A DNA stretch of 62,624 nucleotides, counting the filler, from Rhabdomonas costata (taxonomy: Eukaryota): NCBI GenBank assembly GCA_019059605.1. It is 36 parts of 36 records of this genome, joined end to end, with 100 filler letters (N's around TTAATTAATTAA, not from the genome) between each part and the next. Parts side by side here need not be neighbours in the genome. Positions count along the whole stretch, not along the records: positions 41,826 to 43,467 come from JAHMHO010011438.1; 35 more parts are not named here. One strand, given 5' to 3'. Under the pieces are notes generated by a model. The model was not told where the DNA came from, ran no database searches, and worked only from the letters and a program-made list of their open reading frames with translations. Below are positions 17,061 to 52,177 of this stretch, in pieces. A program made the position numbers and the translations under genes. Positions within the stretch are counted from its first letter, which is position 1; each line of letters begins with the position of its first letter.

Positions 17061-20000
17061 GTTTGCCCCTTCCCGGCCTCAACTTGAACGCTTGAACGAA
17101 GTGAATGCAATTGATGTTGGGTTAACTTGGAAAAGGTTGGGTTTATACTGATTTCAGTACCCGCAAAATGGTTTTTAGTGTAGGGGAGTTTGGTAACCTG
17201 CGGCTGTGTTCCCTAAGTGTGAATTTTTGGTTTGCATGCCAAACTACTGAGAAGGACTGGCCTATGGCTGGGATATGGGTGGCTGAGTGGGACAGCATTT
17301 GTTTTGGGAGCGAATGCTGTCCCACCCCCNNNNNNNNNNNNNNNNNNNNNNNNNNNNNNNNNNNNNNNNNNNNTTAATTAATTAANNNNNNNNNNNNNNN
17401 NNNNNNNNNNNNNNNNNNNNNNNNNNNNNGTGTTGTGTGCAGTGGGCAGATGATGGGCGACAGCCTCCTCCACCTCGACGCTGTCGCCCATCATCTGCCC
17501 ACTGCACGCAAGGAAACAAAGATTCCCGGGACAACAAACCCGGAAGGCAGACGACAACCGCAAAGGAAAGTCTGAAAGAGCAGCAAGACACGATCAGCCG
17601 AGAAACGTTGCGCGAGTCGGGAAACTAGCGGAAGAAATTCGGCACCCAGACCAACGAAGAATAAGAACAATGCGGAACAACCGCGGCGGTCCGACACATA
17701 GGGGAGTGGTAAAAAGCAATGTCCAACAGTTCAACGTTGCTACGGTGTTTTTGCATTGCGGTACCTTTCCTCGGTATTTCAGTGAGTTATTGGTGACATT
17801 GCCCGGAAAGGGAGATGGACGGCTCCCAGAAGACTTAAATGTTCCTCCACCCACTCCATTCGCTGACGCTCATTCCATGACAGATGCTTGATACCCCACT
17901 CGCTGATGACTCGTGGGTCCCAAGATTAGTGCTGTCGATAACAAAACGTGTCAAACTGCGCGTTCACATCCGCCAAATCCCAAAAAACCAGCCCCCCCCC
18001 CCCCCCCAGCCTCCTGTGTCCGTGTGAGACCAACACAGAAGGACGTGTTGAAAAGCAAGTGAGACATACGACGCGAGCTTCACTCGGTTGGCCACGGCTC
18101 CCACGACATCCGCGGGTTGGCCCTTCACAGCAAACAAGGAAAAGTAACAGACGTGCTGAGGGGTGGGGAACTTCGCTCTGGGCATTCGTGTTACACTACA
18201 ATGGCTTCGTTCTAAGTACGCATAGGCGGTGGTGAGCGGGAGGGGGAAGATGCGCTGACACGAAAAGAAAAATAAGACACAGGCCGGGTCACGGCCGGGC
18301 AGGACTCACCCATCCTGCACACACATCCTGCCCCACAATACTGCGGAGTGTGTGCTTGCGCGTTGTGGTGTATTATGCAATGCTTGCCTGCTCAGCTGCA
18401 TTGGAGGGAAGCCGAAGGACGACTCATCACATCGGGTTGGTTGGAGATCCTTCGTGGCATGGGACCTGTCTATGCGTCCATGCGGGAGAAGGGGGAGAGG
18501 TGACAGTGAAGGGAGGTGCAGTTCCTGCTTTGCCCGCCACACACACACACACCGGCTTCGTACCCACCAGCAGGGTGACGCCAGCTCGGCACAGGGCAAG
18601 CTCCACCTTCAAAGAGGGGTCGGGTTTCGCCTGCGACGGTATAACACAGGAATGATTAACGGGAAGGAGAGAGAATGCAAACGAACTAAACCGGAATGGG
18701 AACATAACCTTTCGGGACCAAAACTGAACAATTCGACTCTAAAAAGTCGTTTGGACGAGGCGAGATGGTGGCCTGATGGGAAGGGGGGGGCGTTTGATAA
18801 CTGTCACCTCCCAAAGTCAAGAGCATGGGCACGGAGTGGGCAGGGAGTGGCATTTGGAGGCAATGCTGTGACCCTCCACAAGGGTCACTCAACATCCATT
18901 GCCAAGATTGCCACGGAAACAGTCATTAAAAGGGGGTGCAGTACATTTGGACGCGCCCCCTTCTCCGTTTGCAAACCCCCGCGCAGCGATCACTGCTCAA
19001 AAGTGCTGACATAATTCCTCGAGCACCTTTGAATCTTGGGGACAAGTATGGCCCCCTTACTCCCCACAAAACNNNNNNNNNNNNNNNNNNNNNNNNNNNN
19101 NNNNNNNNNNNNNNNNTTAATTAATTAANNNNNNNNNNNNNNNNNNNNNNNNNNNNNNNNNNNNNNNNNNNNTGAGGAGGCCATATGTGGGATTGTAATA
19201 GAAGATGTGGCAGGGGGTTAGGAGGCGACAGTATCAGCATAAACAAGGGTTACCAGGATGCAGGCCCGACGAAGACGCATCACCGCCCTACTACAACCAA
19301 GCACCATAATTCCTAGTACCCACATGGAAATGGTTTGTCCCGTAAACTGCCCTGGCGTTCAGGGTGATCGGAGAGCGACTAAGTGATTAAAGACACCGGT
19401 ACGGCATTTTCACCTCCCATAAAGGAAGGAAAACCTACACCCGTGGCTTTACCATCAACGGGACACTCACAGACACTCGCCAACCTCAAAGTAAAAAAAC
19501 ACAAATGCAAGCTCTGCCAAAAAGACGATTGGGAGGAAAAACTAAAAGGGGGAGAAGAAGAAAATACCCTCGACACAGCCGCAAAAAAAACCAACATCTC
19601 CACAGCGCCGGGAAGGGTCACTTTCCTGCATCTTATGCAACTCAGAGAGCAGGAGAAAGGATCCAGGATCTGTCATCCAGCCATTCTGAGCTGCCTTGCA
19701 GGAGCCTTACTGTGGTAATATCCCAACGCCGTGAAAGCTCGAACGTCCAGCAGTCCAACAGTTGACCATAAGGCATGGATCGGTGCGGGAGGGTGTGCGG
19801 AAGGCCCCAAAGAGAATGAACCATAAGTAAAGCTTTAAGTGTGAGACTCATTCGACCCCTGCACAACTGAATCAAAAGCTGCGCCTACCCAAGGTACCCA
19901 GAAGGATAAAAAGGACACTGCAGCCGTGGCGAAGAGTAAGCCAGCCAATCGTCCCCATCCCAGGTGCTTGATGAGACACAAGCCACGGGAGAGCCCTGGA

Positions 20001-23487: not shown

Positions 23488-24401
23488 GTTCACCCACCCC
23501 TACAACCCGTCCCCGCTGTCCGTGGCAGGAAAGCGTTGGCCCTCTCCAGGAAGTGGGTGCGCGCGTGTGCAGGGAAAAGCTCGCTCGCCGATCCAATTTG
23601 CCTGCAAACGGGGCCCCAGTGGGTCGTTCTCTGTTTACTGGTTTTCGAACAATAGGAGCGCCACACATCCTCATGAATTTCCACAGCACTAATTCGAAGG
23701 CCGATATACGTGATATGCTGGATGCACGTCTTCCCATAGGTTGGCGTCTTGGGAGGAGTTTTCCGTTTTATTTTCTAGTGTCTTGAACTTGAGTATCTCT
23801 CTTCTCTGATGGAATGTGTTTTAGCTGCCGTTCATGTCGCACTGCGTTTTGGATTTAGGCTGAAGAAATGGTGCGGCACTCCGTGCAGTGGAGGAAGGAA
23901 TTCGGCTGTGAGAAAATCTTCACCGAGACCTTCGATCCCGCCTTTCCCACCAAGTACGTGGGTGCGAGATCCCGATAAGTTAGGTGGCCTGTGATTTTTT
24001 ATGAATGGTCCATGGTTTCTATGGTGATCCATTGTGTGTTCCTCATGCATGTCCTATTTTGGTGGTGGCTCCACCAAGAGTGCATGGGAGGTTCTTCCCA
24101 TTCAAGACAATTCCCTTGCCAAGCTTGCTTCCCTTCCCTTCACAGCTCTTGAAGTGACAGGACGTCAAGAGTGTGCTTCGGTTCTTTTTGGCGGTTCGGG
24201 TTCAGCCTAAGGCTCGTGCGTTCTTTCCCCGTTGGGGATTTCGCCCCCCTCCAAGCTCACTCCCTCCACCGGTGGAGAACCATCTCCACCACCCCACAAA
24301 ANNNNNNNNNNNNNNNNNNNNNNNNNNNNNNNNNNNNNNNNNNNNTTAATTAATTAANNNNNNNNNNNNNNNNNNNNNNNNNNNNNNNNNNNNNNNNNNN
24401 N

Positions 24402-24968
24402 CAATGTAGCCCCCAGGGCAGGAGTAGTTGTCGCAGGTTGGGTTCGCTGTACGAGCAAAATAATGGAAGGAAGCCCACCAAGTCGAATGACCCCTTGCGC
24501 CTTCAGTTTTCTGGAGCTTTACTCAAACAATTACCTATTTTTTTCTCGATGCACCAATATTCATGAACGGGGGGGGGGGGCGATGAATCAACGAGCAAAC
24601 CCACCGCTCCAGAAAATCAACCTGCCATGGCCATATTACCGCATTACCGCAGTCCGTAAAGTACATACATCCCACCATCTTACCACGGCACCATGGGAGG
24701 GGGGGGGAGGTGCGCCACAAAATGAATACGCAGGCGACTCCGTCGGAGGAATGCCAAATTACTTGCTCAACAGAACTTTTTCCTGCGGGGTAAGGGAACC
24801 CCCCGCACACGGAGAACGGGCGTGTGATACACATTCCCATGGGCCGAACACTCAGGCAGGTACCAGTGCAGCAATCGGTGCGGGCACAGTTGAGGGAGGA
24901 ACAGGTGGTGGTGGCGGCTTTCGCAGTGTAGCCCCCGGGGCAGGCGTAGCTGTTGCACTTCGGATTGG
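24402..24968 (-). CDS. Cysteine-rich repeat (probably surface/extracellular) protein, one repeat per exon (24968-24864; 24446-24402, truncated)
   Basis: NPKCNSYACPGGYTAKAATTTCSSLNCARTDCCT and NPTCDNYSCPGGYI...; the complete exon is a symmetric phase 1-1 exon of 105 nt. Confidence 0.7.
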
Positions 24969-25521
24969 CTGCGAGAAAACAGCTCATACAAGGCGGGTGG
25001 GTACAATTTGCACGTGGGGTGAGTGTGGGAGACTGAAAGGACAGGTTTTGGAGACCCATCATCCCACACTGTGCAGCAGCCTGCGGCGTTTTTGAAGGAA
25101 GCCATGAAGATGAGGACCATGGGTCAACAGGGTCATGAGGCGATGACGATACGGACTCTGCCTTGGTATAGGGATTGTGGGTACACAAGAAACCAGCTGT
25201 TCATGGTCACGAGAGAGCAACCACCATTCTAATGAGGTGCCCCCCACTACACCAAGCAAGCTTGCGAGCGTGTAGAGGTAGGGTACAGGGCAACAGAGTG
25301 GCCCCACAGGGCTTCAATCTGCAGATTTCAAACGAAGAGGGAAAAGGAGGACAACCCCACGCCGCTTCGTCGAGGGTATTTTTTGCGGGGGGGGGGGTTG
25401 TTTAAGGCGGGGGATGTTAACTGACGTTAAACGATATGGTTCGAATCTCTACAAGTAGGGCCCGGGCGCCCGAAAACCCGCTCATATGTCGACCGGATGC
25501 CGGAAAAAAAACGGAAAATTT

Positions 25522-29663: not shown

Positions 29664-31151
29664 GTTTATCTCAACTATGCTGGCACTGACGGTCACCCTG
29701 AGCTGAAGTTGAAGCTTACCTTGCCAGAGAAATGGCTGGATGGTCCGGTGCAGAAAGTGACGGAGTTTTTTGTCAAGCAGTACAATGCTAAATTCCCAGA
29801 AAATTGCCTGAATGCGTCTGTGCTTGCCCTTCAAAACAAGCAGGGACTCGTTTTGAGTGACAGCAGCAAGGTCTCCGCGTGCATCAGCGAATACGCTGAC
29901 GTGTTTGTCGTGGACAGACCCCCAGAGAAGGCCACTGCAAGTGAGGCCCCATCTCGGCCCCCAAACAGTTTACAGTGTAAAAACTTGGGTTGCCAGAAGT
30001 GGTTCGTGGAGGCGGAGAACAACGACAGTGCCTGTCGTCACCACAGTGGTGCACCTGTCTTTCACGACCTGGCAAAGTACTGGACTTGCTGTTCTGAAAA
30101 GAAGGTGTGCCTTGCTAAAAAGTATTGTGGTTCAAGCAGAACTTTGATGCTTGTGTCTAGCCGGGAATATGCTGCGTGGGCATTCTCTGCGTTTTTAACG
30201 GAGGTTGGTATCGCTCCCTTGCTAACTTGCTGAATCCCTGGCCCCTTTCTCCCCCCCATCACCCTTGCACGTCACTTTTTCGGGTTTGTTCACTCACCTC
30301 CCTTCCTCCGCAGGCGTACGATTGGGAAGAGTTTCAAGCCATTCCAACCTGTTCAACTGGCCGGCACAGCACAGAACAGAAGGTTGTTAGTTTTATTTGC
30401 ACTTTTCCTCGTTGTTTTTTCGCAGTCGATGTTTCGGTGTTTTGTTGTGTTGATTTCCTGCAATTCCGCTTGGCGCCATTTTCTCAAGAATGAGAGCGCA
30501 TGGCTCAACAGCAACTTTGCAACGGTCAGTTTGGATCAATTTTAGGTTTTTCTCACACGCAGGTCATTGCGGTTTCACCATTGTAGACTTTTGGACTTTT
30601 CTTACCGCCCCGGACTTGCGAGTGTGAACCTGTCGCGATTTTTTCGAACAGGTTCAGCTTTTCAAACCCAGCGAGGAGGTTTCCTCACCTATAATTCCTG
30701 CTCCGCTCACTCCAGAGCAGGTCGCCGTCGCGGAGGCTCCCCCTGCTGCCCCGGTGGTTGAGGACAAACCCGGGCCCATAGTGGACGGTCAAGCAACGTG
30801 TCGAAACAAGGGCTGCGGGAAAAAGTTTGTCGTCGCAGAGAACTGCGAGGATGCGTGCATCTTCCATTCTGGGGTGCCCATCTTCCATGACACCAACACA
30901 TACTGGTCTGTCCTTCTCACTTCGCTTCACGGTGTTTGATGACTCACTGTTCATGGTTTCCTTTTGCCTCCAAAATTGCAAACTAACTGATGCTGACTTT
31001 TTCGGTCTCATTTGAACACAAATTTTGTTGCGTTGTCTGCTGGTGTTTCCCTCTCTTGTAATGCAGGAGCTGTTGCCCTCAAAAGAAATGTTGGGACTGG
31101 GACGAGTTCATGGCGGTGGTCGGTTGCAGTAAAGGACCTCACAAAGTGTGA
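29664..31151 (+). CDS. Two-CHORD-domain zinc-binding protein (RAR1/CHORDC1-like, no CS domain) with an N-terminal extension; exons 29664-30104, 30314-30382, 30652-30905, 31067-31151
   Basis: CHORD1: CKNLGCQKWF...NNDSACRHHSGAPVFHDLAKYWTCC..AYDWEEFQAIPTCSTGRH. CHORD2: CRNKGCGKKF...[38 protein letters not shown], TGA stop. All introns GT-AG and phase-consistent. Confidence 0.92.
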
Positions 31152-33302: not shown

Positions 33303-34357
33303 CTGCTCCTTGAGCTGAGCCACCTCTTGGTCTTTCTTCTCGGCGTACTCCATGTAGACGCTGAGTAGGTGCTTGAGCTCGTTCATCTGCTTCCCTCCTG
33401 GCACCACATCCCTTTCAACTTAAATTTAAAATTTTATCCCAAAACTATGCCGCGGGGAGGGCGTACTGACAGTAATGGAGGGTGCAGGTGGTAGAGGGTG
33501 CGGTAGTTGATGTGACTTTTGGTGGAAAGAGTGGTGCATGGCTAAGTCAAAGCGACACAATCCGCAATGCATGTATACATCTGATGGAAGCAAGCCAAGA
33601 CTGAAGGAATCTACGCTTGCAGGATTGCTGTGTTAAGCTGAGATTCTGCACAATGGCAGGAAGGAAGCAAGGTTTGGCAGAAAGGAGACCTTCAAACACG
33701 GTCGTGCTTGGGGGGGACCCGATCAGATCGTTGGCGTCCACGTCGGGCCCCTCGACAGCGCGCTGCCCTCTCTTAGCCAGGGTGAGCAGAGTGTAGCCAT
33801 AGCCTTGGCCCTGAGTCACCCGGTTCCGGAAGAGGAAAGAGAGAGCAGTTAGGAGCAGGGCCGTATAAAGACCATGCCGAGAGCCGCAAAAATGGCAGAG
33901 GCGATGTTCGCCGCACCACTTCCATGCTACCATGATACGCTTTGGGCAAATTTGGGGTTCAGAGCAGTGTAGCAGTGTACAGCTGGCAGGAAAAGGCTCT
34001 CGGAATCGTACAGTGACGCCGCAAGAAGGCGATAGTGCGCAGCAAATGTTTATAGTTGATACAGTGCAGGCAATCAGCAAAAATACAAACGAGAAGCAAG
34101 GAAAGACACCCAAAACGAAAACACCGCAAACCCAAAGGCAAGCCTCCTTCCGCGACACCAGCTCAACTCGAAGAAATAGAGGGGGGTTTTTACACGTTAG
34201 GTGTACTGAGTATCGTCCAAAACAAACAAAACAAAACAAAGAGCACCGGCTGGGCCAGGCGGATATCATCAGGGTGGTGGTTAATCGCGTCCAACGAGGA
34301 CGAGAGGCCCTCAATGCGGTGCAGGGAGGTCGTCATCGAGGAGACGTCCTCCGTCCA
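33303..34357 (-). CDS. Hypothetical coiled-coil protein, exons 34357-34247, 33810-33690, 33397-33303
   Basis: Phase-consistent GT-AG joins ending GGKQMNELKHLLSVYMEYAEKKDQEVAQLKEQ. Confidence 0.55.
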
Positions 34358-39499: not shown

Positions 39500-42364
39500 C
39501 TGAGCAGCAACCCGCATACCACAAGGTTTTTTGGGGTCCTCCGCCCCTTATCAGTACACCGCGCAACCTTCCTGTTTACTCAAAAACCCTCCATTCCAAC
39601 TATTCCAACTACATCGGTCTCACAAGGCCCAGGAGCGAGGGCTCGGTCTCGAGCTCTCCAGTGGAGTTTTTCCTAGTTAATAAATAAGTGCAGGTTGCAG
39701 TCCGACTAAAATGTGGACACATTGAAATGTTTGCATTGTATCACCGGCAGCTTCATTCTGGTTCTTTGGTTGACACACACATACACATACTCCGGTGTAC
39801 AGGGTAAACACTGGTACGAACACTATCAAGCATCGAAGTCAGCTGGAATCCATATTTACAGTTTACCATGCTGGTCTCCGGCGTGATGGTGAAGGCAACT
39901 CTGGCCTCTGGCCCCAACCCATCAGGACTTCCCCTGTATACACGGGGCAACCAGGTGTCTGCCAACCACACACCCACACCACCNNNNNNNNNNNNNNNNN
40001 NNNNNNNNNNNNNNNNNNNNNNNNNNNTTAATTAATTAANNNNNNNNNNNNNNNNNNNNNNNNNNNNNNNNNNNNNNNNNNNNACAAATCACAAAATTAC
40101 GAAATTTCCCTTACATCCAATTTACGTCTAATTTAGAAAAATGTGTGGACAACAGGAGTGATCTACTCCACAGCACTGTGTCATACAAAAGCTTGATAAC
40201 TTCCAATTGTGTTTCTTTGCAATAGGGCTCTCTTTAGATGAATTTAGTGGAGGGAAGTATTGGGTGCTTTGTTATGCTCCTTCAATTGTATTTTTTCATT
40301 CAATGTGCTTAACTTCAATCTTTTATTACGTGCAAAACGTGCTTTGCACTTGTACGTCTTGTTTTCTCACATATTGGTGCTATGATAACTTGTCGTGCAA
40401 AATAACCGGATTGAGTAGCACATGAAGTCAAATATACATGACAGTATAATTCTGGATGTGATACATACTTGTGGTTTAACTTGTGAACGCGAAGTAAACG
40501 TCATTTCACAGTTTCAATGTCATATTGCCAATTTAAACTATACATTCATGTCATGTTCATTATGCACAAGCGTTCGCACCTTTACTTCAATCCATAGTAA
40601 CACATAATCTACAAATCTAACAAAAGAGCTTACAATAAGGTGCACATAAGTCGGCCAACTTTGTGCGCGAACATGAGTGATACACTGGCTTCGAGGAGAG
40701 TTGGATAGCACGTGTGTGCAATGACTGGTTTCGTGAGGTTTTGTAGATATTACGTCAGATCTACAAATTTAACTTCACTGACAATAAACATTTAAACATT
40801 ATTGTACTTCAGACGTGATACAAGAAGTATCATGTAAGGTGTCTTTACTAGGTATAAATGAGACGACGCAGTAAGTGCAATATGTGCACTCTTTTCCAGT
40901 CATTTACTCCAGGTTTGCGATGAACTGGCGTGGGGACATGGAAAAAAGATTTCATAATGTCATATATGGTATTACAGCAGGCATTTCCGCACAGGATTAC
41001 AAATCACTGAAATTTAAGTGACTCACAGAGCTGGAGTTTTATAATATTACAGATAGAGAAGGCTTAGGTGTTACGACAAGTTTGTGCTCCACCAAGACAG
41101 CCGGATGTTGATACAGTAGATGAGAGAGTATGTTTTGAGTCTTTGGTGGTTGCAGGGCTTTTTCCAACCTACGCTATGCTAAATGCCAATAAGAAGATGA
41201 TTTTATTGTACGCCGAGACAATTTAAGAGGGTTTGTCGGACGTTTACACCAAACTTACGTATCAGTATGCAGATGGAGTGGAGTGCGGAGAGGATTATGT
41301 GTAGAGGAGTAAATGGACAGGTTTCAGAGTTTCTACCTTTGAAAGCAGACGTTCTTCATAGGAGTAGTGGATATTTAGTGCTCCAGATGAATCTTAAATT
41401 TTCAGAGTGATGGAGGAAGAGCAGGCGCCACCGTCCACATGTGCTCAAGAGGAGGTGTTTCATAGAAATGAAAAAGAAAACGATTCAGATACTGATATTG
41501 GTGGCCCAGTTGGGCTACAATTGCAGAGAGCAGTGCAGATGGAGGTGCACAAAAGAGTGTGGGAGTTGCAGCCCCACCAACCCAAGGTACATGTGAGGGC
41601 GGAGATAGGAGTTCCGCAGATAATGGTTGCACGGTAGTGAGCTTCAGTGCGAATGGTACAGAGGTCATTCTAGATCCACTTGAATATCTCAGAGATCATG
41701 ATGAGGAGGCAGTTGACCCAAAACCNNNNNNNNNNNNNNNNNNNNNNNNNNNNNNNNNNNNNNNNNNNNTTAATTAATTAANNNNNNNNNNNNNNNNNNN
41801 NNNNNNNNNNNNNNNNNNNNNNNNNGTTGGTGTTGCCGCCGAGCGAGTCAGATGGCCGAGTCGGAAGAGGTCTGTCTACTTGGTGGGTGGGCTTGCAGTG
41901 ATGGTCCAGGCGACCAGTGCAGGGTTCTTGTTCTCGGCAAGGTTGTCGTGTTTCTTTTTTCGCGGTTACATTGCTTTTTTATTGGCTTAGGCCTTTGTGA
42001 TCTGCTCTGTATACGGTGGGTCACTTCAAAATTGCTTTGAAGGGATTGTTGCTTTGTTCTGCACTGCGATGAAGGCAAGCGATGCATTGAAAATCCATAG
42101 TTTGTGTGAACAGCTCTTCACTTGTAGCTTACATAGACCGCTTGATGTGCGCCCTCCATCGTAGTATGAAATACCGCGATATACGAAATGGCACGTACCT
42201 TTCTTTGTCTCCCTGACTTTACATTTTCTGTGGCTGGGACTATCAGGCCGCGACATTCCAGTTCTTCTTGGAACCCACCTTTTCCATCACAAAAGCACCT
42301 AGACCTATTGCTTCTGGATCCCGGCTCACAAAACAAAACCAGGCATAACAGAGGAATGTGAAAC

Positions 42365-42587
42365 CTCTCGGCACTGAATGGTAGAAGTCATTCTCGGATC
42401 CCAGAGATGCGCCTCCTTGATGGCCACCGGCTTCTTGCTTGTCTTATCCATGGCGAGGTAGACACTTCCGCACCCCCCATCACCCAGCAGGCCTTGAAGA
42501 ATGTAGGCCCTTTTGCGGTTGCCAACCTCGCCGGAGGAACCAGCGATATCCAGCAGAGAGCCGGAAAGAAGGTACCCAGACGGGTTG
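42365..42587 (-). CDS. Ser/Thr protein kinase N-lobe exon (subdomains I-III), spliceable in frame to the upstream ART-like exon
   Basis: YILQGLLGDGGCGSVYLAMDKTSKKPVAIKE...CRE|GT; GxGxxGxV and VAIK present; phase-2 acceptor CACACAG|. Confidence 0.85.
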
Positions 42588-42840
42588 CTGTGTGAGAAAC
42601 CCAGGGGTGGGAATAGGGGAAGTGCAGAGGTGTCCATTATCAACAGGACCCAACATCTCCTAACCCATCGCTCGAGTCCATACCCCCCATACCCACTGCA
42701 CCCCACCCTCCACCTGGATTCATTCAGCAAATGAAACTGGACTGAGAAGTGGGGGAAGAAGAAACCCCAAGCAATATACGGATGGCCCCTCGACAAAGCG
42801 AAACCGGCTAATATCGACTTGAACATACCAAACACTCGAC

Positions 42841-43466
42841 CAGTGCAGGTAGTTGATCGATGAAAGCCGGTTGTACTTTCCCTTCACCGTGACCAGGCCG
42901 GGACTCACTTCGCCCGCACCAATGGCCACCGTGTGGTGGTCGACAATCTGAACGTCGACGGCCGCCCCGAACTCCACAAGCACATCTCTTTCTTTCCTGT
43001 TGCACGACAGCTCGGCAATGTTGTAGCCCTCAATCTCGGACACCGTGTACAGGGTACGGTCGCCTGTTTTCTTGGTCCTGAAATCGGCCAGCACATCGCG
43101 CTCTGTGGTGAAGAAAGTCAGATCGCTAAAGAAGATCCTGGGGACCTCACTCTCGATGGACTCCTTCACTCCACGTTCCACACGGAACCCCGTCACCCCA
43201 GAGATCCGGAACCGCTCCGGAAGTGACCGCAGCCCGATCAGAACCAACTTCGCAAAGAACAGCCCGTCGGAAAACCGCACACTCTCCCCGTTAGTCATTA
43301 GGTACTTCAGCACGTAGCGCAACGACGATCCGGTAAAGCTTCGGACGGCGGCGAGGCAGTCGAGCCGGACTGCCCGACGGACGTCTTCTAGAGCGCTGTG
43401 CTGGGCCCAGTGGAGGCATTGCTCCAGGCAGTTCTCGCACCCACCCCAGGCTTCGTTAAGCCAAAA
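42841..43466 (-). CDS. ADP-ribosyltransferase-like (R-S-E clade) domain with degenerate catalytic motifs
   Basis: Open from the contig end: LAAVRSFTG...FAKLVLIGLRSLP...TGFRVERG...DLTFFTT...F...GDRTLYTV...GYNIAELS..KERDVLV, collinear with AIxxYT / LxxLP / YRG / FTSxS / GxRTLF / GxxIxxxS / ExEVLL. Confidence 0.65.
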
Positions 43467-43760
43467 ANNNNNNNNNNNNNNNNNNNNNNNNNNNNNNNNN
43501 NNNNNNNNNNNTTAATTAATTAANNNNNNNNNNNNNNNNNNNNNNNNNNNNNNNNNNNNNNNNNNNNCAGTGATATGCGTAAGATATGGGTGATGGTTCT
43601 CCACCCAAAATATGCGGTGTGCGGATAACGGTGATACGTGCGTGCATATTTGCTATGCCGGAAGAGAAGTACGTATTTTTATATTTTTCTCATCCCATGC
43701 CGTGTAGAGAGTATTGCGCCCACTTGGGGCGCATCAGTGTGCTTCCTCGTCACTCCTCAG

Positions 43761-51314: not shown

Positions 51315-52177
51315 CATCGCATTGGGGTTGGCCTTTCTGCTCAGCAGGGTAGACACCACCTCCTCCAGCTGCGGCTGAACTGTAGTGCTCTGTACGGGGG
51401 AGAAAGGGTTGCAAAAAACCAAAGTCACAGCGACGGAGATCCGCATAGCACGCGGGCAGAAGTCGGAAGGAGTCGCAGAGGGACGGGCTGGGATGGAAAG
51501 AAAGCTCGATGGTTTCTGCATATTTTCTCCTGCACTCTCCTGAGCGTTCGAGTGCAAACTCGAGAGCAGCCACCAATCTTAAAAAAATTATGCAGAGACA
51601 ACAGCGGCCGGGATGGCTTATATCGAAAACACAATCGAATAAGCTCTCCGGTGATTGTCTTGTACTCCTTCCCTAGAAGTGGTGAGATGGTACCAGAATC
51701 TGCTATCAAAAGCGGAGGCGTCCGAGACGTCTGAGGCTGAGTCAAGGTGGATGCAAAGGCGCAGAAAAGAAAGACAACTGTTTTCCTTCTTTTTTACCCA
51801 ACGTTTGTAATGATGCGATGAAACGTTCCGCATTTTCCAACACTCAACTGTAACCTGAGCGACATAAATTCAAGTGATTTGGTAAAGCTAATGAAACTTG
51901 TTTCCATACTTAAACTTAGAGCTCAATGCCCGCTAGGGTGCACAGACCCTACAAGGTTGAAGAAAACCAGTAACAGTTACCTCAGCGAGCCTCTCTGCCA
52001 CATAGTGCAACGCGGTCTTGTTGTCCTTGTCCTTTACATTAAAGTCTGCTTTGAGATCGAGCAGCTGCTGAGCCAGCTGGGCCCGACCCTTGTGAATGGC
52101 ATGCATGAGCGGCGTCTTGCCCTCCTTGTCCGCATGCTTGAGTTTGGCGCCAAGCTCGACTAGCTTCAGAGCCAGCT
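51315..52177 (-). CDS. Ankyrin-repeat protein (exons 52177-51981, 51374-51315)
   Basis: LVELGAKLKHADKEGKTPLMHAIHKGRAQLAQQLLDLKADFNVKDKDNKTALHYVA...LLSRKANPNA. Confidence 0.9.

Follow-up and report, generated by a model that had tools for sequence, protein, structure and literature searches.

In a 62,624-base stretch of Rhabdomonas costata DNA (assembly GCA_019059605.1; hereafter the window), we examined a gene fragment on the minus strand of one short contig (JAHMHO010011438.1, window positions 41826-43467). The contig appears to carry the middle of one protein-coding gene, in which a GT-AG intron would separate an exon for an ADP-ribosyltransferase (ART) domain of the R-S-E clade from an exon for a linker and the beginning of a protein kinase. 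The ART exon is confirmed by structural modeling to adopt the R-S-E fold. Of the R-S-E triad, the Arg is present, and both the Ser of motif 2 and the catalytic Glu of motif 3 are absent. With moderate confidence, we regard this copy as a paralog of an uncharacterised ART-kinase family, with a catalytically weakened ART head attached to a kinase.

The window consists of about 36 unrelated pieces of about 1,642 bases each, joined by N44-TTAATTAATTAA-N44 linkers (70 N runs of 44), and the gene fragment occupies most of its piece. Because the pieces are concatenated contigs, the ART open reading frame (ORF) is truncated at a contig end, and genomic context is available only within 41826-43467. The predicted gene structure is as follows.

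42829..43466, minus strand: exon 1 (partial), 212 codons plus 2 bases, R-S-E-clade ART domain; its 5' side lies beyond the contig end
42588..42828, minus strand: intron 1, 241 nucleotides (nt), GTATGT...TTTCTCACACAG, phase 2, conventional GT-AG
42365..42587, minus strand: exon 2, linker CNPSGY...SLLDIAGSSG and kinase N-lobe, ending GAG/GT in phase 0
42484-42461, minus strand: glycine-rich loop GDGGCGSV of the kinase N-lobe, in exon 2
42427-42416, minus strand: VAIK lysine of the kinase N-lobe, in exon 2
41826..42364, minus strand: start of intron 2, GTTTCA donor, reaching the other contig end

An initial annotation, made from the sequence alone, had described an uninterrupted exon of more than 200 codons, two possible phase-2 donors and a phase-2 acceptor that opens a kinase N-lobe, and each of these was found. 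The minus-strand frame runs without a stop from the contig end at 43466 to a stop codon at 42722-42720, giving 248 codons (P0001). The candidate donors of exon 1 lie after 42841 (GTCGAG) and after 42829 (GTATGT), both in phase 2, and a CAG acceptor that ends at 42588 precedes position 42587, also in phase 2; GDGGCGSV and VAIK are located downstream. The same annotation had called the exon unusually long. Its length stood, and its uniqueness did not, as the window holds three other stop-free frames of 245–261 codons (33547-34332, 18259-19014, and 24358-25095, the last with 245 codons, 15 of them linker N read as X). By eye, these three frames look unlike protein, and no search was made on them.

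The most informative relative for the gene structure is P0003, a 363-amino acid (aa) R. costata protein from the EukProt set, which was predicted from a transcriptome according to the part of the genome report that describes it (PMC8219788). P0003 contains an ART domain, the junction sequence '...TSWCNP...', the linker 'SLKDIVDSAG' and a kinase N-lobe (Pkinase, 42 bits). The window and P0003 have a common domain order, a 'CNP' junction and the linker pattern 'SL.DI..S.G'. In a tblastn search of the window, P0003 matched with residues 38-264 (E 2.7e-80) and residues 265-326 (E 7e-5), and since the two matches are colinear on one strand and cover both exons, the arrangement goes beyond chance. 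Exon 1 aligns with residues 38-250 of P0003; about 37 N-terminal residues of the homologs are absent from the contig.

The 23 candidate donors allow 48 GT/GC-AG combinations that preserve the frame, and we scored each of these against P0003. Joining 42829 to 42587 gave the top score of these 48 open splice combinations (726) and yielded '...SSV/C/NP...', recreating the 'CNP' junction of P0003. The predicted end of exon 1, within codon 213, coincides with a drop in the confidence of the AlphaFold2 model: residues 1-209 are ordered, and from residue 210 the predicted local distance difference test score (pLDDT) is mostly below 50. Past the donor, the exon 1 frame continues open for 36 codons, through intron 1, to the stop at 42722-42720, and the corresponding read-through residues 210-248 are predicted to be disordered. 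The 212 and 74 codons of the two exons contain no stop or frameshift, and neither the two splice sites nor the next donor is damaged. In the section of the genome report that treats introns, those examined in six R. costata genes are conventional GT/AG introns (PMC8219788). The earlier proposal that the ART is joined to the kinase by splicing is supported at the level of sequence, with P0003 presenting the same order and junction and 42829/42587 as the top-scoring predicted join.

Structural and profile comparisons bear out the assignment of exon 1 to the ART superfamily fold. We modeled the exon 1 protein with AlphaFold2 on alignment A2, a profile of 27 aligned family members, and obtained a mean pLDDT of 82.9 (above 80 to residue ~209) and a predicted template modeling score of 0.76. 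The ART fold is a split beta-sheet core with an N-terminal helical subdomain. Foldseek searches with this model retrieved more than 30 R-S-E ART chains at a probability of 1.00 (E 1e-9 to 1e-5). Bacterial R-S-E ARTs of the HopU1/XopAI/Vis/ExoS-ExoT group occupied ranks 1-9; Vis, XopAI, HopU1, C3bot, and Tre1 were among the matches (E 1.3e-9 to 1e-6), as were Certhrax and CDTa. When the A2 profile was compared with the PDB, the matches included XopAI (1.4e-13), Vis (9.7e-10), and rat ART2 (3.4e-4), together with ExoT and Tre1. The window protein alone matched only XopAI, with an E value of 0.5.

A match to the ART family PF01129, one of the comparisons proposed in the initial annotation, was obtained for part of the family and not for the window protein itself. 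A Pfam scan of the window ART ORF returned zero families at E<=10, and the protein missed the 22.3-bit gathering cut-off of PF01129. In a Pfam scan of 31 family proteins, many of them fragments, PF01129 was above its cut-off in 12 and just below it in 2 more.

Alignment of the family with known enzymes located the active-site motifs. In HMMER alignments, the family motifs YRAE / TSFS / ExEVL map to YRG / TSTS / EAEVL of Vis and to TSSS / QEEVL of rat ART2. The window copy has FRVE / TFFT / ERDVL at these positions, and the motifs GFRVE, LTFFT, and ERDVL occur in the order that had been described for it. This mapping upholds the claim that the Arg is kept and that the Ser and Glu are altered. 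The relevant residues, compared with 26 homologs, are listed below.

Arg95, 43182..43184, minus strand: motif 1 (GFRVE), the conserved NAD (nicotinamide adenine dinucleotide)-binding Arg, kept; R in 24/26 homologs; aligns with YRG of Vis
Phe118, 43113..43115, minus strand: motif 2 (LTFFT), position of the first Ser of S-x-S/STS; S in 25/26 homologs, F only in P0004
Asn156: aromatic position of the ADP-ribosylating turn-turn (ARTT) loop, Y156N in the window copy; Y or F in 24/26 homologs
Glu159: first Glu of ExE, kept; E in 24/26 homologs
Asp161 (codon GAT), 42984..42986, minus strand: motif 3 (ERDVL), position of the catalytic second Glu of ExE; E in 25/26 homologs, Q in 1, D in 0

Glu165 is also kept. 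The ERD and TFFT changes proved not to be conserved among the relatives, with Asp found in 0 of 26 homologs and Phe only in P0004, in which the ERE triplet is intact. Since canonical R-S-E motifs characterise the family overall, the changes are peculiar to the window copy, except for the replacement of Ser by Phe, which is common to P0004. Thirty-four alignment columns have the same residue in at least 21 of the 26 homologs; the window copy retains 31 of these columns and deviates at three (C50R, S118F, and E161D), and other members deviate at 0 to 12. The hypergeometric probability that two of three deviations fall on the four catalytic columns is ~0.03. Judged by its residues, a kept fold with altered chemistry fits a pseudo-enzyme, or an enzyme of strongly reduced activity, better than random decay. 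In diphtheria toxin, exotoxin A, and C3, activity falls by orders of magnitude when the catalytic Glu is replaced by Asp. With Phe for Ser, Asp for Glu, and Asn for the ARTT aromatic residue, the window copy has probably lost most or all of its transferase activity, with the fold and the NAD-binding Arg retained.

The kinase part is represented on the contig by the N-lobe. In addition to the glycine-rich loop and the VAIK lysine, the candidate alpha-C Glu is present in a CRE sequence that aligns with LRE of P0003, and exon 2 is 40% identical to P0003 residues 265-326. Pkinase (PF00069) matched exon 2 at profile positions 3-38 with 17.4 bits versus a cut-off of 31.7, a score that stays below the cut-off because only 36 N-lobe residues match. 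Tblastn searches with nine homologs (E<=50, word size 2) found no credible third exon 3' of 42365 in the 539 nt, among the matches listed, and among these there was likewise no minus-strand match to P0003 kinase residues beyond 326. Since no further kinase exon was found on the contig, the C-lobe with its HRD and DFG motifs lies off it. In complete family members, the kinases carry HRDxKxxN and DFG in their consensus.

The closest relatives of the window ART are R. costata proteins of the EukProt set (58-64% identical), followed by a Petalomonas protein (39%). The best match in a collection of 5.8 billion proteins was P0003, at 64%, and nothing identical or near-identical was found. A word-index search for relatives of 435-2000 aa passed 0 of 2878 candidates; long members did emerge when 1.84 billion representatives were searched exhaustively with HMMER, and 30 relatives were found at E<=1e-3, 13 of them at <=1e-10. 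Proteins that combine an ART with Pkinase do occur among these relatives: seven of the 31 scanned proteins carry a kinase (P0003; P0009, with WD40; P0017; P0018; P0019; P0023, with Ank; and P0026). Other tails in this set are Ank, TPR, and PB1+Sel1, the last in P0005 of R. costata. Metagenome contigs yielded 25 loci, and at 15 of them the match to P0018 extends over its ART part as well as its kinase part.

In a maximum-likelihood tree of ART domains, the window copy groups with P0003 and P0004 (support 98/97). R. costata P0005 and then Petalomonas P0007 come next, and the metagenomic sequences form a separate clade (99/98). Kinase tails are present in both the euglenid and the metagenomic clades. 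The N-lobe of P0003 is 29-37% identical to three of six metagenomic kinases and has no match to the other three, a likeness that, judged by these identities, is generic kinase similarity. From the domain scans, the family is best described as lineage-expanded, with a constant ART head and varied tails (kinase, kinase+WD40, kinase+Ank, Ank, TPR, and PB1+Sel1). P0004, at 269 aa, has its own stop soon after the ART domain and a tail unrelated to kinase. P0003 and P0004 are identical over approximately their first 135 residues and ~60-70% identical thereafter, which may reflect chimeras made in transcript assembly or very recent paralogy with a common 5' exon.

Several results bear on the origin of the family. 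Sparse ORFs on the longer metagenome contigs, together with one neighboring HEAT/PDS5-like protein, suggest that the metagenomic members come from eukaryotic sources. Scans with patterns of the metagenomic clade (alignment A4) gave 98 pattern matches in 185,579 prokaryotic species genomes and 60 in IMG/VR viral contigs, with 0 confirmed in either set; as these patterns derive from the metagenomic clade, the prokaryotic and viral absence is weak evidence. Relatives of the main (metagenomic) clade were not found in prokaryotic genomes by this pattern scan, and the family is therefore not simply bacterial contamination. As a lead only, the head of P0018 adjoins eukaryotic ART clusters in the ESM Atlas. 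In 9 of 10 homologs examined by a Kyte-Doolittle scan, which is crude, the N-terminus is conserved and non-hydrophobic and lacks a leader, and P0026 may have one; two of these 10 homologs do not start with M, and the N-terminus of the window copy itself lies off the contig.

Two metagenomic sequences stand somewhat apart. In P0027 (685 aa), the match is confined to the N-terminal helical part of the ART family (query residues 14-108, E 5e-7), and PAS and GGDEF domains come after it; this architecture is bacterial in style, and the helical subdomain may be all that is shared. At L017:4516-5526, an ART-kinase copy that is 79% identical to P0018 residues 239-574 lies within no ORF of at least 120 aa and may hold introns or frameshifts.

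These observations can be combined into a working model. The complete gene would encode an N-terminal arginine-type (R-S-E, ExE-type) mono-ART domain, a short linker, and a eukaryotic-type Ser/Thr kinase. Most family members would probably be cytosolic dual 'writers', placing ADP-ribose onto arginine and phosphate onto Ser/Thr, with targets that may be chosen by the variable tail. In the window copy, the head could instead serve as a non-catalytic module that binds NAD, ADP-ribose, or a partner and that positions or regulates the attached kinase. A bolder extension is that euglenids and other aquatic protists possess an undescribed cytosolic dual-writer family in which paralogs like the window copy act as dead-ART NAD+/ADP-ribose sensors that gate the kinase and couple NAD metabolism to phosphorylation; this we offer tentatively, and consider it rather doubtful.

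A number of points weigh against the favored reading of the window copy as a weakened ART attached to a kinase. The splice assignment rests on homology and motif quality, and donor 42841 scores 722, close to the 726 of donor 42829, with 651 for the unspliced ORF, all versus P0003. Because P0004 ends after its ART domain, ART-only products or unspliced transcripts exist in R. costata. The C-lobe lies off the contig, which leaves the intactness of the kinase unproven. The four euglenid homologs lack a Pfam match to PF01129 at E<=0.001 and, as the window protein lacks one too, its membership in PF01129 is only transitive. The non-hydrophobic N-terminal motif is what places the family, probably, inside the cell, and this is a hydropathy heuristic only. 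Thr117 and Thr120 flank the lost Ser, and Asp sometimes supports residual catalysis. Finally, single-base errors may underlie the substitutions, in an assembly that is very fragmented.

One alternative is that the ART head is still active, with altered chemistry or acceptor specificity, as part of a dual-activity enzyme. The catalytic carboxylate would then be supplied by Asp161, with Thr117/Thr120 standing in for the Ser. The retention of Arg95, Glu159, Glu165, and 31 of the 34 conserved columns is consistent with this, as is a model that is confident across the active-site strands, and replacement of Ser by Phe alone may be tolerated in the subclade, because P0004 has Phe with an intact ERE. 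However, no homolog has Asp at the catalytic position, the ARTT aromatic residue is lost as well (Asn versus Y/F in 24/26), and a change of Glu to Asp there is strongly deleterious in studied ARTs; we consider an active head unlikely. Replacement of two of three catalytic-triad positions could also be explained if this locus were a pseudogene, a paralog of R. costata-type ART-kinase genes that is truncated or in decay and yields no functional protein. No near-identical protein is present among the 5.8 billion (64% at best), and no kinase exon past the N-lobe appears in the 539 nt downstream, among the matches listed. Introns longer than 540 nt would account for the missing exon, however, and 212 and 74 codons free of stops and frameshifts, intact splice sites and next donor, and structural columns conserved no worse than in the rest of the family (3 deviations versus 0-12) make a pseudogene improbable.

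The locus might alternatively give rise to two products or comprise two genes, an ART-only protein ending at 42720 like P0004 and a kinase exon that is separate or used only sometimes, through intron retention or alternative splicing. The transcript-derived P0004 is such an ART-only protein, with a tail unrelated to kinase, and the window frame is open for 36 codons past the donor. Against this stand the fused form of P0003 in the same subclade (98/97), the predicted disorder of the read-through tail, the absence of any similarity to P0004 past its residue 250 by tblastn on the window, and an exon 2 that begins in phase 2 and has no start codon context of its own; on balance, separate products seem very unlikely. 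An artefact, either a chimeric contig made from an ART gene and a kinase gene or miscalled bases behind the Asp and Phe codons, is what one might suspect in an assembly of very short contigs, with each substitution one base away from a Glu or Ser codon. Yet the order of ART, linker, and kinase, with a conserved junction and linker, recurs in the independent, transcript-derived P0003, and three separate functional positions deviate. We find an artefact hardly credible.

Comparison with known systems places the probably weakened ART-kinase copy and its family among the R-S-E enzymes. Vertebrate ARTCs (ART1, ART2, and ART5; PF01129) share the fold and the R / S-x-S / [EQ]-x-E active-site layout of the family, and the ERE of the R. 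costata paralogs is the triplet given for human ART5 (PMC7955679, Table 1). Unlike the ARTCs, which are secreted or glycosylphosphatidylinositol-anchored single-domain ectoenzymes, the family has a non-hydrophobic N-terminus in 9 of 10 homologs examined and kinase or repeat tails, and the window protein falls below every Pfam threshold, with neither the motif Ser nor the catalytic Glu present. The best matches of the family by profile and structure are in the bacterial HopU1/XopAI/Vis/ExoS-ExoT group. Vis and HopU1, as their PDB molecule names also indicate, are arginine-directed ExE enzymes. In contrast to the ART-kinase family, members of this group are secreted or injected bacterial toxins or effectors that carry no kinase.

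Precedents for inactive ART folds are provided by ART3, ART4, and XopAI, which, like the window copy, keep the fold with triad residues replaced. Table 1 of PMC7955679 gives the triads of the human pseudo-ARTs as K-L-V for ART3 and G-S-E for ART4, and in our family profile alignment XopAI lacks the motif Arg (FTGE versus YRAE). The window copy differs from these three in that it keeps the Arg, loses the Ser and Glu, and is joined to a kinase; its inactivity is inferred. A kinase and an ART do occur in one polypeptide in phage and plasmid polyvalent proteins (Iyer et al. 2017, PMC5512222). Unlike the window gene, these are injected conflict proteins with truncated phage kinases, non-R-S-E ARTs, and a different order. 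Tankyrase offers a possible functional analogy for the Ank, TPR, Sel1, and WD40 members, in that a repeat module selects the ART targets, although its ART is an H-Y-E PARP domain at the C-terminus and that of the family is an N-terminal R-S-E domain. In the literature searched, no protist protein that joins an R-S-E ART to a eukaryotic protein kinase was described; the review most likely to list one fell outside the scope of that search, and novelty in print is not established.

Searches of the rest of the contig and window gave few additional features. Tblastn with family homologs found no other copies of the ART-kinase gene in the window, and an Rfam search of contig 41826-43467 gave zero matches at E<=0.1. 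An ORF antisense to the gene (42864-43226, plus strand, 120 aa) had no Pfam match and was treated as a shadow of the coding strand. On a separate contig, 52008-52175 (minus strand) is an ankyrin-repeat-like coding stretch that P0023 matches with its Ank region (tblastn, E 4e-4) and that is unrelated to the ART-kinase gene. Another contig carries an exon of a CHORD-domain protein at 29664-30110 (plus strand; 29664-30233 in the comparison with relatives), spotted by eye from its CxxGC...CxHHxGxPxFH...WxCC pattern; it has two database relatives, both with PF04968 and at most 45% identical.

The significance of the gene is limited in that it is a fragment on a 1.6-kb contig, both of its domains are individually well known, and its function is inferred. 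Intracellular R-S-E ARTs of eukaryotes, as distinct from vertebrate ectoenzymes and bacterial toxins, have barely been studied, and the signaling of euglenids and their relatives is largely unexplored. Canonical copies (ERE, Ser) and altered ones (ERD, Phe) form natural pairs within the family, so that the choice between enzyme and pseudo-enzyme regulator can be tested directly. A conserved ART-kinase fusion would physically link two major protein-modification systems.

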